A stretch of 24,239 nucleotides of DNA from a virus (taxonomy: Duplodnaviria; Caudoviricetes). Location of the stretch: IMG/VR virus record IMGVR_UViG_3300020044_008468, positions 1 through 24,239 of that record; one strand, given 5' to 3'. The notes below the pieces were generated by a model. It saw only the letters and a list, made by a program, of their open reading frames with translations, had not been told where the DNA came from and did not search any database. Each line of letters starts with the position of its first letter. Within the stretch, counting starts at the first letter, position 1. This document shows, one piece after another, positions 1,140 through 4,802 of this stretch. The translations under genes and the position numbers were made by a program.

Positions 1140-1162
1140 AAACGAAAGGGATGAGCAATGCA
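1140..1162 (+). repeat. Duplicated leader/RBS/start element (copy 1)
   Basis: AAACGAAAGGGATGAGCAATGCA; matches 2161-2184 except for one extra A there. Confidence 0.85.
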
Positions 1163-1370
1163 GGTGATTGGACGGATTGTGCTAAATGCCGCCGGGAGCT
1201 CGCGCACGATTGAATGGAGCATCGTGCTCCAAGAGTTTCCCGAATACCGGCTCTTCGGCTATGAGATCAAGGAGGGGGACCGAGTCGTCTGGTCGTTGAT
1301 CGGCCATGAGACGCTTGAGCGAGTTTGGGAGGACGCGATCGCTCAATTGAGCAAATTGAAGAAGTTCTAG
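1158..1370 (+). CDS. Small hypothetical protein (70 aa)
   Basis: ATG within the repeated leader. Its TAG stop overlaps the first base of the ribozyme. Confidence 0.75.
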   Translation: MQVIGRIVLNAAGSSRTIEWSIVLQEFPEYRLFGYEIKEGDRVVWSLIGHETLERVWEDAIAQLSKLKKF

Positions 1371-1432
1371 CCGAAACGCCTCTTGCGAGGCGTCATGTCC
1401 GGATTGACCTCCGGCGTCTGACGAGGCAGGTT
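1370..1432 (+). ncRNA. Type II hammerhead self-cleaving ribozyme with loop I/3'-tail pseudoknot
   Basis: GCC(1370-72) GAAA(1373-76); stem III ACGCCTC-ttgc-GAGGCGT; cleavage triplet GTC 1392-94; stem I ATGtCCGG-attgacct-CCGGCGT; core CTGACGA 1418-24; GGC 1425-27 closes stem II; loop GACCT 1406-10 pairs with AGGTT 1428-32. All catalytic-core nucleotides are present. Confidence 0.93.
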
Positions 1433-1467
1433 CCTCGAATCACTTCTTTGCTCAGGAGCTTTTAACC

Positions 1468-1734
1468 ATGCCAACTGGCCGTACAAACTGGGTGACTCGC
1501 CACATATTCACGGTTCCCATCCTCCACCGAGAGGTCGCCGCAGACCTCGTCGGAGACTTCGTGTCGGATCACAAGCTGAAGGTAGACGCAGAGTGGCATT
1601 ACTCGCCCAATGGCGACCTCGCGCATCTCTGGGTGACGGGCTCTCGGGCCTCGCTCCAGCGAATAGAGGATTATGCCGCTGGGTATCAACTCGGCTACGA
1701 CAAAGGCTACGACCTCGGATGCAAATTGGGTTGA
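1468..1734 (+). CDS. Small hypothetical protein (88 aa), probable distant paralog of 2180-2464
   Basis: AGGAG RBS 1454-58. LWVTGSRASLQRIEDYAAGY motif. C-terminal GxxxG repeats (GYQLGYDKGYDLG). Confidence 0.8.
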   Translation: MPTGRTNWVTRHIFTVPILHREVAADLVGDFVSDHKLKVDAEWHYSPNGDLAHLWVTGSRASLQRIEDYAAGYQLGYDKGYDLGCKLG

Positions 1735-1765
1735 GACGCACAACACCAACGAAAGAAAAAGAACG

Positions 1766-2029
1766 ATGTCTGATTTTACGACGATTCAATTGACCGGCGG
1801 ATGCCTCGGCAGCGACACGATGGAAGTTCGGTGCGTGTTATCGCGAGCCGAAGCTCCCGTCCAAGTGGACTACCATGAAGGCAATGGATGGGAATTCACG
1901 CAATTTCAGGGAGGCGATTGCCGAGGCCGAGTTTCCGCATTGGTCGCGATCGCTCGCGGCCTCGCGGCTCATGCCGTTGGCGCGAGCGAAGAGGAGGCCA
2001 ATGCTTGCACTTGGATCGTGCTCCCATAG
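1766..2029 (+). CDS. Small hypothetical protein (87 aa)
   Basis: ATG 1766 (MSDFTTIQLTGG) after an A-rich leader AACGAAAGAAAAAGAACG. The track start at 1673 overlaps the previous gene. Confidence 0.7.
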   Translation: MSDFTTIQLTGGCLGSDTMEVRCVLSRAEAPVQVDYHEGNGWEFTQFQGGDCRGRVSALVAIARGLAAHAVGASEEEANACTWIVLP

Positions 2030-2060
2030 CGGGATTTGGTGTCTCCGAGTCGGGCTCCGG

Positions 2061-2130
2061 AAAAAAAGTCCCAAATACTTCCAAAAATGGTCCCATTTGG
2101 GATTGCCGACGTCCGATACCTTGATATCAT
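2061..2130 (+). promoter_or_regulatory. sigma70-like promoter with A-rich upstream element and operator-like repeats
   Basis: -35 TTGCCG 2103-08, 16-nt spacer, -10 TATCAT 2125-30. Upstream A-tracts. TCCCAAAT 2069-76 is inverted to ATTTGGGA 2095-2102. Lies in the longest intergenic gap of the window. Confidence 0.55.
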
Positions 2131-2160
2131 GGAAGAGTCGGAGCGAGAAACCAACAACCG

Positions 2161-2184
2161 AAACGAAAAGGGATGAGCAATGCA
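2161..2184 (+). repeat. Duplicated leader/RBS/start element (copy 2)
   Basis: AAACGAAAAGGGATGAGCAATGCA, compare 1140-1162. Confidence 0.85.
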
Positions 2185-2464
2185 AGATGAAATGATCGAA
2201 GGTTTGGCTTACGTTAGCGGCATGGATAGCGAATCGGAATGCCGGCTGATTACAACGGCTTTGATCGGCCTTCGTGATAGTGGCGAGGCGAGTCTTTGGT
2301 TCGATCTCCTCGTCGTCGGGACAACGGCTGGTCCCAGCAAGACGGTGATCACGCTTCAGGTTCGCGGAGCCACTCGCCGCGACTTGGATCTCATGCGGAT
2401 GTATGTTCACGGCTGGAGGACGGCGCGACGGCTCTCGGCGATGTCCGAAGCCGCGATCAAGTAG
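2180..2464 (+). CDS. Small hypothetical protein (94 aa)
   Basis: ATG in the repeated leader. LQVRGATRRDLDLMRMYVHGW resembles the motif in 1468-1734. Confidence 0.75.
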   Translation: MQDEMIEGLAYVSGMDSESECRLITTALIGLRDSGEASLWFDLLVVGTTAGPSKTVITLQVRGATRRDLDLMRMYVHGWRTARRLSAMSEAAIK

Positions 2465-2477
2465 GCGAGTCGGCTCC

Positions 2478-2527
2478 GCTCTTGGCAACAACGCTCGGCT
2501 TCGGCCGGGCGTTGTTTGCCGGAGAGC
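2478..2527 (+). other. Long hairpin with C(UUCG)G tetraloop (copy 2)
   Basis: Core AACGCTCGGC-TTCG-GCCGGGCGTT 2490-2513, extended by GCTCTTGGCAAC / GTTTGCCGGAGAGC pairing. Confidence 0.8.
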
Positions 2528-2575
2528 ACAAGCAACGTCACGAGCTCTAGTTTTTTTAACCGAAGGAGAGACAAA

Positions 2576-2944
2576 ATGAAGATGAAGCTCGAAACGATCA
2601 AAGGCAATTACGAGTCGGAGTCGTTGCGCGATTTGCGCGAATGGCTCGAAACGCATCAACCGGCATTCGCGACGATCCTCGTATGGTCGCGGGATCGCGA
2701 AGTCTACGAGCAAGCCAACTTGCGCGATGACCTCCCGGTCACCGAGGCGTTGATCGATGCGATTGCTCAAATCGTGCTCGATGTTTACGATTCCGGCGAA
2801 TACGAGGGGGACAACGAGATGCCTCATCGCCTTTGCTTCCATCAAATCGCGGCTCGTCTGGAGCGAACCCTAGAAGAGTCCGATCCAGACGACATTGAGA
2901 CGGCGATTCGCTTCGCCGGCCATGATTTGCATCGCGAAGTCTAG
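2576..2944 (+). CDS. Acidic hypothetical protein (122 aa)
   Basis: AAGGAG 2563-68 before ATG 2576. Confidence 0.75.
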   Translation: MKMKLETIKGNYESESLRDLREWLETHQPAFATILVWSRDREVYEQANLRDDLPVTEALIDAIAQIVLDVYDSGEYEGDNEMPHRLCFHQIAARLERTLEESDPDDIETAIRFAGHDLHREV

Positions 2945-2949
2945 TAACT

Positions 2950-3027
2950 TGCTCCGCATTCAAGCGGAGCGGTAATGCAAAGCCGGCTTGCATCCTTGTG
3001 GACGCAAGCCGGCTTGGTTTGTTTGCA
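2950..3027 (+). other. Intergenic double stem-loop upstream of the RHH gene
   Basis: GCTCCGC-attcaa-GCGGAGC, then AAGCCGGCTTGC-atccttgtggac-GCAAGCCGGCTT, with outer TGCAAA/TTTGCA complementarity. Confidence 0.6.
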
Positions 3028-3047
3028 GACACAAAAGGAGAGAACTT

Positions 3048-3230
3048 ATGCAACGGTTGGCGATCAAAGTCTACTTGGTATCAAATCTCTTGAAGGCTCT
3101 TCGAGCCGATGCCAAGGCATCCAAGACGACGGTTCAAGCCGTTATTTTGGCTTGCCTAGCAACGCACTATGGGATCGATGTCCCGGCTCCGGTGCGCGGC
3201 CGGCCGTCAAAAAAGGTTGTGAAGCGATAA
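3048..3230 (+). CDS. Ribbon-helix-helix (CopG/Arc-like) DNA-binding protein with C-terminal RGRP motif
   Basis: AAGGAG 3035-40, ATG 3048. 60 aa: beta strand AIKVYL, helix SNLLKALRADAKAS, turn KTT, helix VQAVILACLATHY, then VRGRPSKK. Confidence 0.7.
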   Translation: MQRLAIKVYLVSNLLKALRADAKASKTTVQAVILACLATHYGIDVPAPVRGRPSKKVVKR

Positions 3231-3247
3231 GCAATAGGAGGACTTTC

Positions 3248-3505
3248 ATGAACAGCGAAGACAAAATGCGGCTCGTCGCTTTGCGCAGCATCGAGCGAGC
3301 AAGCCGCTCGATCTTTTCATCGATCGAATCGATCGCGGGAATTTTGCACGAAATGCCGGCCTTGGAGGACATCACCGACGAGGAGCGGCAACTCATCGAC
3401 TCCGCGAGCGCATGGATATCGCTCGCGCCATTCTTGGTCGAGAGCCGGATCCGCAAGTCGTTTGCGGCGAAGCTCGGCAAATCCCTGAACGCAAAGCCCG
3501 ATTAA
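3248..3505 (+). CDS. Small helical hypothetical protein (85 aa)
   Basis: AGGAGG RBS before ATG 3248. Stop overlaps the stop of the convergent gene (TTAA 3502-05). Confidence 0.75.
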   Translation: MNSEDKMRLVALRSIERASRSIFSSIESIAGILHEMPALEDITDEERQLIDSASAWISLAPFLVESRIRKSFAAKLGKSLNAKPD

Positions 3506-3882
3506 GAGGCCGACGAGGACGCCGAAGCTATCGCGGGCGTGAGCGTTTGGGGCGTCCCAATGCCGGCGAGGCGAAGCGATACCGTCTCGTTGGTTTGCCT
3601 CGTGATGCTCGTGCCTCCAGTTTGAATTTCGATCTCGATCCGACATCCTTGCGGATCGAGGTCTTTTGTTTGGTCTCCCGAGACGGGAACCGACACAATG
3701 CCTTGCGCCCATGATCCATTGCTTGGCTCGGCGATGACCCAAGGGCCGGCAAGATGCCGGCCGGCGATCGAAACGAGCGATGCTCGGACCGTCGCTCCGC
3801 TCGGGATCGAGTAAGCAACTCCGTCGGTTGTGACCAAGACCGAGAGCGGAAGCGTGTCGCCGATATAAAGTATCCTCGTCAT
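3502..3882 (-). CDS. Putative virion protein, BppU-N/Ig-like (126 aa)
   Basis: ATG 3882 overlaps upstream TGA (ATGA). IGDTLPLSVLV...SGATVRASL...IEIEI pattern. Confidence 0.6.
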   Translation of the reverse strand: MTRILYIGDTLPLSVLVTTDGVAYSIPSGATVRASLVSIAGRHLAGPWVIAEPSNGSWAQGIVSVPVSGDQTKDLDPQGCRIEIEIQTGGTSITRQTNETVSLRLAGIGTPQTLTPAIASASSSAS

Positions 3883-4802
3883 ACCAAAACTCCCGCCGGC
3901 CGCGCCGGCTTTCTTGGTGCGGTGAAGCTTGCGCCTCGAATCGAAACGGTAAAAACAGTTTCGATATCTGCGCATAACGCAAAAGTTTGCCGATCGGCGA
4001 CCAAATCCCAATCGAGTCCTCCAGCGACAATTCCCGGAGGCATGACGATTGCGATTGCCGAGGCAACGTCGGCAACAAGAGCTCCACCGATTGCGACTCG
4101 CGGCGATGAAACAGAGCCGCTTGCCAAAATCACCGGAGGGACAAGCGTCACGAGAGATGATGTCGTCGGAGCAATTGCGGCCGCGATCGAGGATACGACG
4201 TCGACCGCGATCGTCATTGAGCCGAGAACATCTGGAGCAATCGCGGTTGCGATGGACGTCGCAAGGCCGGGAATGATCGATCCTTCGAGTCCCAAGTTAA
4301 TCGCGATGATCGCTCCATGCGATTCGATTATTGGAACCGCGATCGAGACGGTCGCTCCGGCGATCGGCTCAATCAAGCTCGACGAGCTCGTGACGATCGG
4401 AGCCGCGATCGAAACGGTCGCTCCGGCGATCGGCTCAATTACACTCGACGAGCTCGTGACGATGGGAGCCGCGATCGAAACGGTCGCTCCGGCGATCGGC
4501 TCAATTACACTCGACGAGCTTATGACAATCGGAGTCGCGATCTGCAACGAGACAAAGATCGGCACGAGTCCCGAACCCTGCCAACAAGCGAGCGAGCTAT
4601 CTTGCCAATTGATTAAATCGCCGGCTTGATCGCTCCACTCGGGCTCCGGCAAATATTTGACGCCGGCGACAACGACCGGAACTTGGAGCGAAATTGCAAA
4701 ATTGGATGCCGGAGCGAGCAAGCTCGCCGAGCTTGCAATTACGGGAGCCGTTATCGTTTGAGGCGTCGCGGTCTCGATCGCGACGCGAAGAATTCGTCTC
4801 AT
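3879..4802 (-). CDS. Ala/Ser/Ile/Val/Pro-rich repeat protein (putative fibre/virion protein)
   Basis: ATGA-coupled at both ends. 22-aa repeats SSSSVIEPIAGATVSIAAPIVT. Confidence 0.7.
   Translation of the reverse strand: MRRILRVAIETATPQTITAPVIASSASLLAPASNFAISLQVPVVVAGVKYLPEPEWSDQAGDLINWQDSSLACWQGSGLVPIFVSLQIATPIVISSSSVIEPIAGATVSIAAPIVTSSSSVIEPIAGATVSIAAPIVTSSSSLIEPIAGATVSIAVPIIESHGAIIAINLGLEGSIIPGLATSIATAIAPDVLGSMTIAVDVVSSIAAAIAPTTSSLVTLVPPVILASGSVSSPRVAIGGALVADVASAIAIVMPPGIVAGGLDWDLVADRQTFALCADIETVFTVSIRGASFTAPRKPARPAGVLV
4337..4542. repeat. 66-bp tandem repeat, about 3 near-identical copies (in-frame)
   Basis: Units start at 4337, 4403 and 4469 (ccgcgatcgaracggtcgctccggcgatcggctcaat...). 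Confidence 0.92.

Follow-up and report, generated by a model that had tools for sequence, protein, structure and literature searches.

A predicted type II hammerhead ribozyme that shares a base with a stop codon between two small phage genes

The window, i.e. the whole 24,239-nt stretch of DNA analysed in this study, spans the entire length of a single virus record. Its minus strand carries the terminase, portal, protease, capsid, tail and tape-measure genes, and the plus strand contains, at approximately positions 1150-3500, a series of small ORFs without assigned function. The named relatives among the best 120 capsid matches listed were mostly from Planctomycetota (48-51% identity), with one alphaproteobacterial record, and the single relative of the portal protein found in genomes was a Phycisphaerae MAG (50%); a search of genome contigs revealed no capsid relatives. 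The record is likely to represent a tailed phage of a planctomycete host. The ORF that ends the tail gene cluster (3879-4802, minus strand) encodes three near-identical 22-residue repeats and gave no family match.

The small ORFs designated ORF 1158 and ORF 1468 (Table 1) border the junction described in this study. ORF 1158 and the unrelated small ORF 2180 are preceded by an identical 18-nt leader (1145-1162 and 2167-2184, respectively), composed of a Shine-Dalgarno (SD) sequence, an out-of-frame ATG placed too near to it, and then the real ATG. The identity of the leaders suggests cassette shuffling. A promoter-like site with an extended -10 (2103-2130) lies directly before the ORF 2180 leader; the promoter scan of the window as a whole gave a result at chance level. 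One near-identical homolog of ORF 1158 was detected (3 substitutions), and its Atlas model (pLDDT 0.78) has a viral look-alike at TM 0.74. ORF 1158 is probably translated, because of the identical leader, the near-identical homolog and the confident Atlas model. Loci of ORF 1158 relatives were found neither in the genome nor in the viral contigs, and the representatives yielded weak partial matches only. Pfam and PHROG searches assigned neither ORF 1158 nor ORF 1468 to a family, and the Atlas matches were all under 0.9.

Two loci with full-length homologs of ORF 1468 were found (L623 and L624). In both of them the homology is confined to the region from the ATG onward, a different gene lies upstream and there is no ribozyme; the DNA similarity (positions 3001-3264 of these loci) fades just past the position of the window's stop codon. 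ORF 1468 is a gene cassette exchanged between phages. Since its homologs in two records lack an upstream ribozyme, the element identified in the window belongs to the junction and not to the gene.

Table 1. Position of the features identified at the junction of ORF 1158 and ORF 1468
Feature	Position	Strand	Remarks
Upstream ORF (ORF 1158)	1158-1370	+	Open reading frame, 70 aa; ends with TAG at 1370
TAG stop codon of ORF 1158	1368-1370	+	Its G (G1370) is position 11.3 of stem II
Predicted type II hammerhead ribozyme	1370-1432	+	Between two small phage ORFs; read from the sequence, pairs checked singly
Stem II, 5' strand (G1370-C1371-C1372)	1370-1372	+	Pairs with 1425-1427
Core G12 A13 A14 A15.1	1373-1376	+	G12-A13-A14 at 1373-1375, A15.1 at 1376
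Stem III hairpin	1376-1393 (1376-1382/1387-1393)	+	7 Watson-Crick pairs; -11.8 kcal/mol; predicted 3' end of upstream product
Predicted cleavage site, after C17 of GUC	1394..1395	+	Hammerhead numbering on alignments; U16.1 at 1393, C17 at 1394
Stem I	1395-1417	+	7 bp, 8-nt loop (1403-1410); predicted 5' end of downstream product
Pseudoknot	1406-1432	+	Loop I 1406-1410 with tail 1428-1432; 5 pairs, one G-U
Core C3-U4-G5-A6-C7-G8-A9	1418-1424	+	Heptamer occurs once in the window, both strands considered
Competing (anti-core) hairpin	1422-1437 (1422-1426/1433-1437)	+	-6.4 kcal/mol in context; excludes stem II, masks G8/A9
Stem II, 3' strand (G1425-G1426-C1427)	1425-1427	+	Covariance-model alignment, pair check
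Shine-Dalgarno sequence of ORF 1468	1454-1458	+	9 nt upstream of the ATG; possible pairing partners are the tail (1428-1435) and the end of ORF 1158
Downstream ORF (ORF 1468)	1468-1734	+	88 aa; mobile cassette; homologs at 77-89% identity

Analysis of the junction revealed the features of the type II hammerheads, i.e. the motifs CUGANGA, GAAA and the UH core (1418-1424, 1373-1376 and 1393-1394, respectively), and a topology in which loops close stems I and III while stem II is open. A pseudoknot of at least 4 pairs between loop I and the 3' tail is common but not obligatory in this type, and here it comprises 5 pairs. We observed no deviation in the core, and every helix as well as the pseudoknot is intact. 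The initial annotation had described an intact type II hammerhead with a complete core, three stems and a 5-bp pseudoknot; all of these were found, although it had omitted a one-base bulge in stem I (U1398), a helix that also contains one U-G pair. It had also placed the cut correctly with respect to both genes: C1394, the predicted site, lies 24 nt after the stop codon, and A1395 lies 73 nt before the ATG of ORF 1468. The 3-bp stem II does include the G of the TAG codon, as had been claimed.

An Infernal search (cmscan), which the same annotation had recommended, matched this region (1369-1435) to Rfam family RF02276 with 34.0 bits (E 0.0016), but the gathering score of 37 was not reached. 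The value of 37 was set by curation and does not describe a structural feature; 3 of 7 RF02276 matches likewise score below it. A covariance model built from 41 pseudoknot-type phage hammerheads, with the window excluded, gave 57.0 bits, and the next-best score in the window was 8.4. A loose descriptor without the pseudoknot yielded 2 matches in 300 dinucleotide shuffles of the window. In the 42-row alignment of the subfamily, 93.2% of 840 cells were paired, with 202 double changes vs 51 in shuffles; in alignment A3 the row of the window is one column off in stems I and III, and the covariation counts are slightly low. Each of the 5 pairs of the pseudoknot shows covariation in the form of double changes, with 77.6% of the cells paired; this count alone is independent of the choice of rows, which were selected by their stems. 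The pseudoknot reaches 5 bp in 69 of 116 family members, compared with 14% when tails were swapped. The evidence of sequence and covariation thus points to 1370-1432 being a real type II hammerhead, whose cleavage after C1394 is predicted from the chemistry of the family.

Searches of the 24,239-nt record, itself a fragment, with Rfam, the descriptor and the subfamily model revealed no further ribozymes; the clustering described by Perreault et al. 2011 (PMC3088659), in which several ribozymes border single genes or short gene blocks, was not observed. The window ribozyme shares with the type II examples of that study an open and short stem II, a full core, a pseudoknot of at least 4 pairs right after stem II and an intergenic location among small phage genes. 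It differs from the clusters described there in being a single copy in a 24-kb fragment, in its bulged stem I and in its score below the Rfam cut-off. It also resembles the type II hammerheads of Desulfovibrio vulgaris (PMC8782182) in its type, its phage-like or hypothetical gene neighbours and its (here predicted) product ends. The window ribozyme is an ordinary further member of the known hammerhead class.

We then asked how the type II hammerheads of viral contigs are placed with respect to stop codons. Four pattern scans, which leave everything upstream of position 11.1 free, yielded at least 501 loci and at least 414 distinct structured type II hammerheads; among the matches listed, the set was narrowed to 403 with at least 280 nt upstream, and then to 383 without shared flanks. 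An ORF of at least 50 aa ends at -9 to -2 from G12 in 278 of these 383 listed matches, vs 3-8 of 371-383 in shifted controls and 20 of 365 in the antisense control, and 41/383 have no ORF end within 60 nt. With one ribozyme per locus the count was 230/325 among the matches listed, several loci still being on one contig. The last base of the stop codon is paired in stem II in 90/383 listed matches, and 36/383 carry TAG at -3 exactly like the window. Also among the matches listed, 75 of the 138 stop codons at -2 to -4 are TAG, vs 36 of the 204 farther off (p about 1e-12), and ORF ends within the ribozyme itself are near background. The stop overlap is therefore a class habit typical of phage type II hammerheads, with nothing special to the window locus. 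We found no description of a stop-codon overlap or of a core-masking tail in phage hammerheads in the largely open-access literature searched; the main texts of PMC3088659, PMC6765202 and PMC8782182 do not contain the term 'stop codon'.

Comparison with the other hammerhead types and with plain gene junctions indicated how much of this habit may be due to compact packing. Type I elements lie within 5 nt of a stop codon in 41 of 95 cases, and 47 have no ORF end nearby. Among the 56 type III elements only 2 lie within 5 nt (median gap 29), and the core is found within 9 nt of the stop in 1 and within 12 nt in 3 of them; as type III elements sit at some 30 nt from the stop codon, cover by a ribosome is dispensable. 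A dedicated scan of type III revealed a hairpin of -8 kcal/mol or lower within the last 36 nt of the 5' product in 41/48 cases vs 14/48 control windows. In types I and II, stem III of the ribozyme itself provides the hairpin end of the upstream product. The common theme across types is a hairpin-capped upstream message, rather than ribosome cover of the core. The survey yields testable rules: type II elements start at the upstream stop codon and bias its choice, and type III elements add a hairpin to the upstream product. In most of the type III loci L753-L873 the extra stable hairpin is situated just 5' of stem III, an arrangement absent from the portions of the literature searched.

Plain junctions of the same loci are also tight, with a median stop-to-SD distance of 0 nt and 63/111 within 5 nt among the matches listed. 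The slack on the 3' side of the ribozyme has a median of 10 nt, with 67/215 within 5 nt among the matches listed. The 5' gap (277/342 within 5 nt, again among the matches listed) is tighter than either of these, the three kinds of gap being not strictly like for like. Compact packing explains much of the overlap, because type III cores keep off the stop codon and plain junctions are tight, but packing alone does not fully account for the tight 5' gap. An intrinsic terminator control gave 7 terminators, 5 of them with an ORF (median gap 11 nt), which is too few for comparison.

The interpretation that we favour, and that on balance seems probable, is that the type II hammerhead is active and divides a polycistronic mRNA in two, each part having a protected end. 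In this view the stop overlap results from packing under a double constraint, and the tail hairpin comes into play once the RNA has been cut. On the assumption that ORF 1158 and ORF 1468 are co-transcribed, transcription past position 1432 would allow stems I-III and the pseudoknot to form, and the RNA would then cut itself after C1394, as expected from the chemistry of the family. The upstream message would retain the stop codon, followed by 24 nt that terminate in the stem III hairpin and carry a 2',3'-cyclic phosphate; such an end would be terminator-like, yet transcription would go on. In the downstream message, a 5'-OH would mark the start, at the paired foot of stem I. The two products should part easily, because only 3 bp of stem II would join them, and the freed 3' strand would probably refold into the 1422-1437 hairpin, hindering re-ligation. 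The purpose may be to obtain separate, end-protected messages with independent half-lives for the two genes. As the cut must fall downstream of the stop codon and packing is tight, the 5' edge of the ribozyme would come to lie against or into the stop, and TAG would be favoured because stem II wants a G at this place. Ribosomes may slow cleavage somewhat, as a side effect rather than as a function. The processing of phage transcripts into gene-length mRNAs has been proposed previously, and clustered examples do cleave (PMC3088659); in D. vulgaris, cleavage in cells has been shown for three type II hammerheads with phage-like genes nearby (PMC8782182). Hammerheads of A. tumefaciens have also been shown to cleave. 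Protection by a 5'-OH end is not universal, as the glmS product is degraded by RNase J1 (PMC3997798).

A different reading, which we consider rather unlikely, is that cleavage is tuned by translation: the ribosome at the UAG codon would strip off the 5' strand of stem II, 1433-1437 would capture 1422-1426, and the ribozyme would be held off, so that well-translated messages would remain whole and untranslated ones would be cut. The footprint of a ribosome extends roughly 10 nt past the stop codon. With UAG in the A site, the 5' strand of stem II, as the initial annotation had stated for this stem, and GAAA would be covered, and the 278/383 listed stops mentioned above would be within ribosome reach. 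Elements placed a few nt past a stop codon are known to be masked by the ribosome (PMC7858274). The type III cores argue against this reading, since only 1 of 56 is located within 9 nt of a stop and the others are beyond such reach.

This reading also draws support from the competing hairpin at 1422-1437. The minimum-energy fold of the region contains stems I and III and this hairpin instead of stem II (z -0.6), and in the nearest-neighbour model the ribozyme, taken without the pseudoknot, is 3.4 kcal/mol less stable than the fold with the hairpin, which counts against the favoured interpretation. The predicted probability of stem II without the pseudoknot is 0.0005, a value equalled or undercut by 20% of the family. 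Since ViennaRNA omits the pseudoknot and the core contacts, its energies do not decide which fold wins. The tail that forms the hairpin is common to the window and five relatives, four of them in phage record G001 and one at locus L908. The hairpin was found in 6/6 members of this subfamily (3 records; -3.2 to -5.3 kcal/mol) despite differing stems I, which share a build of 7 bp and 8 nt and carry a one-base bulge in 3/6 members, i.e. in the window and 2/5 relatives. Its pair at N7 is C-G in the window and U-A in L908. On the other side, four of the six members come from one phage, kinship is only partly controlled, and the stop codon, which is at -3 or -4 in 5/6 members, is 40 nt away in the remaining one.

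The family-wide counts also point in both directions. A hairpin of -4 kcal/mol or lower is present in 25/383 of the matches listed, vs 12.0 +/- 2.9 when the tails were exchanged (40 permutations, none above 17), and this excess is kept after de-duplication (21/309 vs 9.8, and 13/194 vs 7.0, p 0.03, among the matches listed). Conversely, at the cut-offs used, the hairpin is absent from more than 90% of the type II elements among the matches listed; it is found in 7-8% of them, and chance would account for about half of these. The Watson-Crick match at position 10.2 (17/33 vs 10.6, p 0.006 uncorrected) favours this reading, but the matches at N7 (16/33 vs 12.4, p 0.10) and 10.3 (p 0.34) are not significant. 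Translation termination is brief and RNA refolding is fast, which counts against a ribosome acting in this way. Two mutually exclusive folds, as in an attenuator-like switch controlled by translation, may be conserved: the hairpin forms in all six subfamily members, its family-wide excess is approximately twofold, and the covariation is weak; as modelled, a minority of type II copies, including that of the window, would carry a tail that can mask the core.

The initial annotation had proposed that cleavage could be coupled to translation of ORF 1158. Such coupling is possible: the competing hairpin provides a concrete route for it, but no association was found between the hairpin and the stop overlap (Fisher p 0.44; also p 0.30). 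An effect of the opposite sign is also possible, in which ribosomes melt the helix 1341-1361/1443-1459 and thereby aid refolding of the ribozyme. We regard as unlikely the stronger version, a ribosome-gated ribozyme in which the terminating ribosome flips the RNA into the core-masking hairpin and cutting follows upstream translation. If true, it would define a switch subfamily within the phage type II hammerheads, make the stop-codon fusion a class-wide control point and constitute a natural ribosome-controlled ribozyme.

Several observations were made on the relatives themselves. The four hammerheads of G001, a 56-kb phage record, lie within 5 kb (loci L998-L1001), and one of them precedes an ORF with a cysteine/histidine motif, which is presumably HNH-like; a fifth match in this record (L996) was rejected as a hammerhead. 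A scan of genomes with the core-plus-tail motif gave 120 loci, of which a loose filter retained 2; one of these, L908, is a hammerhead. This element (positions 389-456) has a TAA codon directly before stem II. The contig that carries it, 1,962 nt long, belongs to a Patescibacteria-group MAG and is possibly a misbinned piece of a phage. No useful match came from annotated collections of phages and plasmids.

It is also conceivable, although quite improbable, that the ribozyme gates translation of ORF 1468, whose SD sequence would be masked either by the tail (1428-1435) or by the last part of ORF 1158, until the pseudoknot forms, the RNA is cut or a ribosome acts upstream. The duplex of the tail with the SD sequence (-9.2 kcal/mol) is beyond the 1st percentile of 71 family members (-7.2), and the 17-bp imperfect helix that would enclose the ribozyme by linking the last part of ORF 1158 to the ORF 1468 binding site (1341-1361/1443-1459; -20.3 kcal/mol) falls within the top 0.7-2.4% of three null sets; both pairings were chosen after the fold had been seen, and family-wide enrichment was found for neither (mean z 0.09 +/- 0.09, n=168, and 0.04 +/- 0.12, n=71). 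When the tail is held in the pseudoknot, the cost of opening the binding site in the precursor drops from 9.9 to 6.1 kcal/mol, but cleavage leaves the predicted SD access nearly unchanged (7.9 vs 7.6 kcal/mol), no consistent SD release was found in the five subfamily relatives, and ORF 1468 has homologs that lack the ribozyme. As family rules, SD release by cleavage and the long helix between the ORF end and the downstream ribosome-binding site are both unsupported. The GAGG of the core was rejected as the ribosome-binding site of ORF 1468, whose ATG lies 44 nt past A9 and which has its own SD sequence.

Finally, a misfolded or decaying copy that rarely cleaves is very improbable: the score below the Rfam cut-off, the bulged stem I with its weak A-U/U-G foot, the low probability of stem II without the pseudoknot and the inactivity of 4/18 candidates tested by others (PMC3088659) would fit it, but the core is unchanged, all helices and the pseudoknot are intact, stem II is no more probable in a fifth of the family, the bulge recurs in relatives, and the subfamily model gives 57 bits.

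Under the favoured interpretation, i.e. cleavage into two end-protected messages, the element may be compared with two other systems. The glmS ribozyme (PMC3997798, PMC6765202) likewise cleaves a bacterial mRNA from within, leaving a downstream message with a 5'-OH end, as predicted here. It differs in having another fold, in its dependence on a ligand (no ligand site is evident in the window), in its location in the 5' leader and in triggering decay. Intrinsic terminators situated shortly behind stop codons (Johnson et al. 2020, via PMC7858274) also place a structure within ribosome reach and leave a hairpin-ended upstream message; in contrast, the end in the window would be made by cleavage, transcription would continue, and a U tract is absent. 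The role of bacterial and phage self-cleaving ribozymes has been described as largely open (PMC6765202).

The plus-strand region also contains four very stable intergenic hairpins (1111-1134, 2483-2520, 2951-2970 and 2980-3015; z about -6.7 to -7.1), the first two of which are related in sequence. None of the four is followed by a clean U tract on the plus strand, and they are possibly terminators or stabilisers with a job like that of stem III of the ribozyme.
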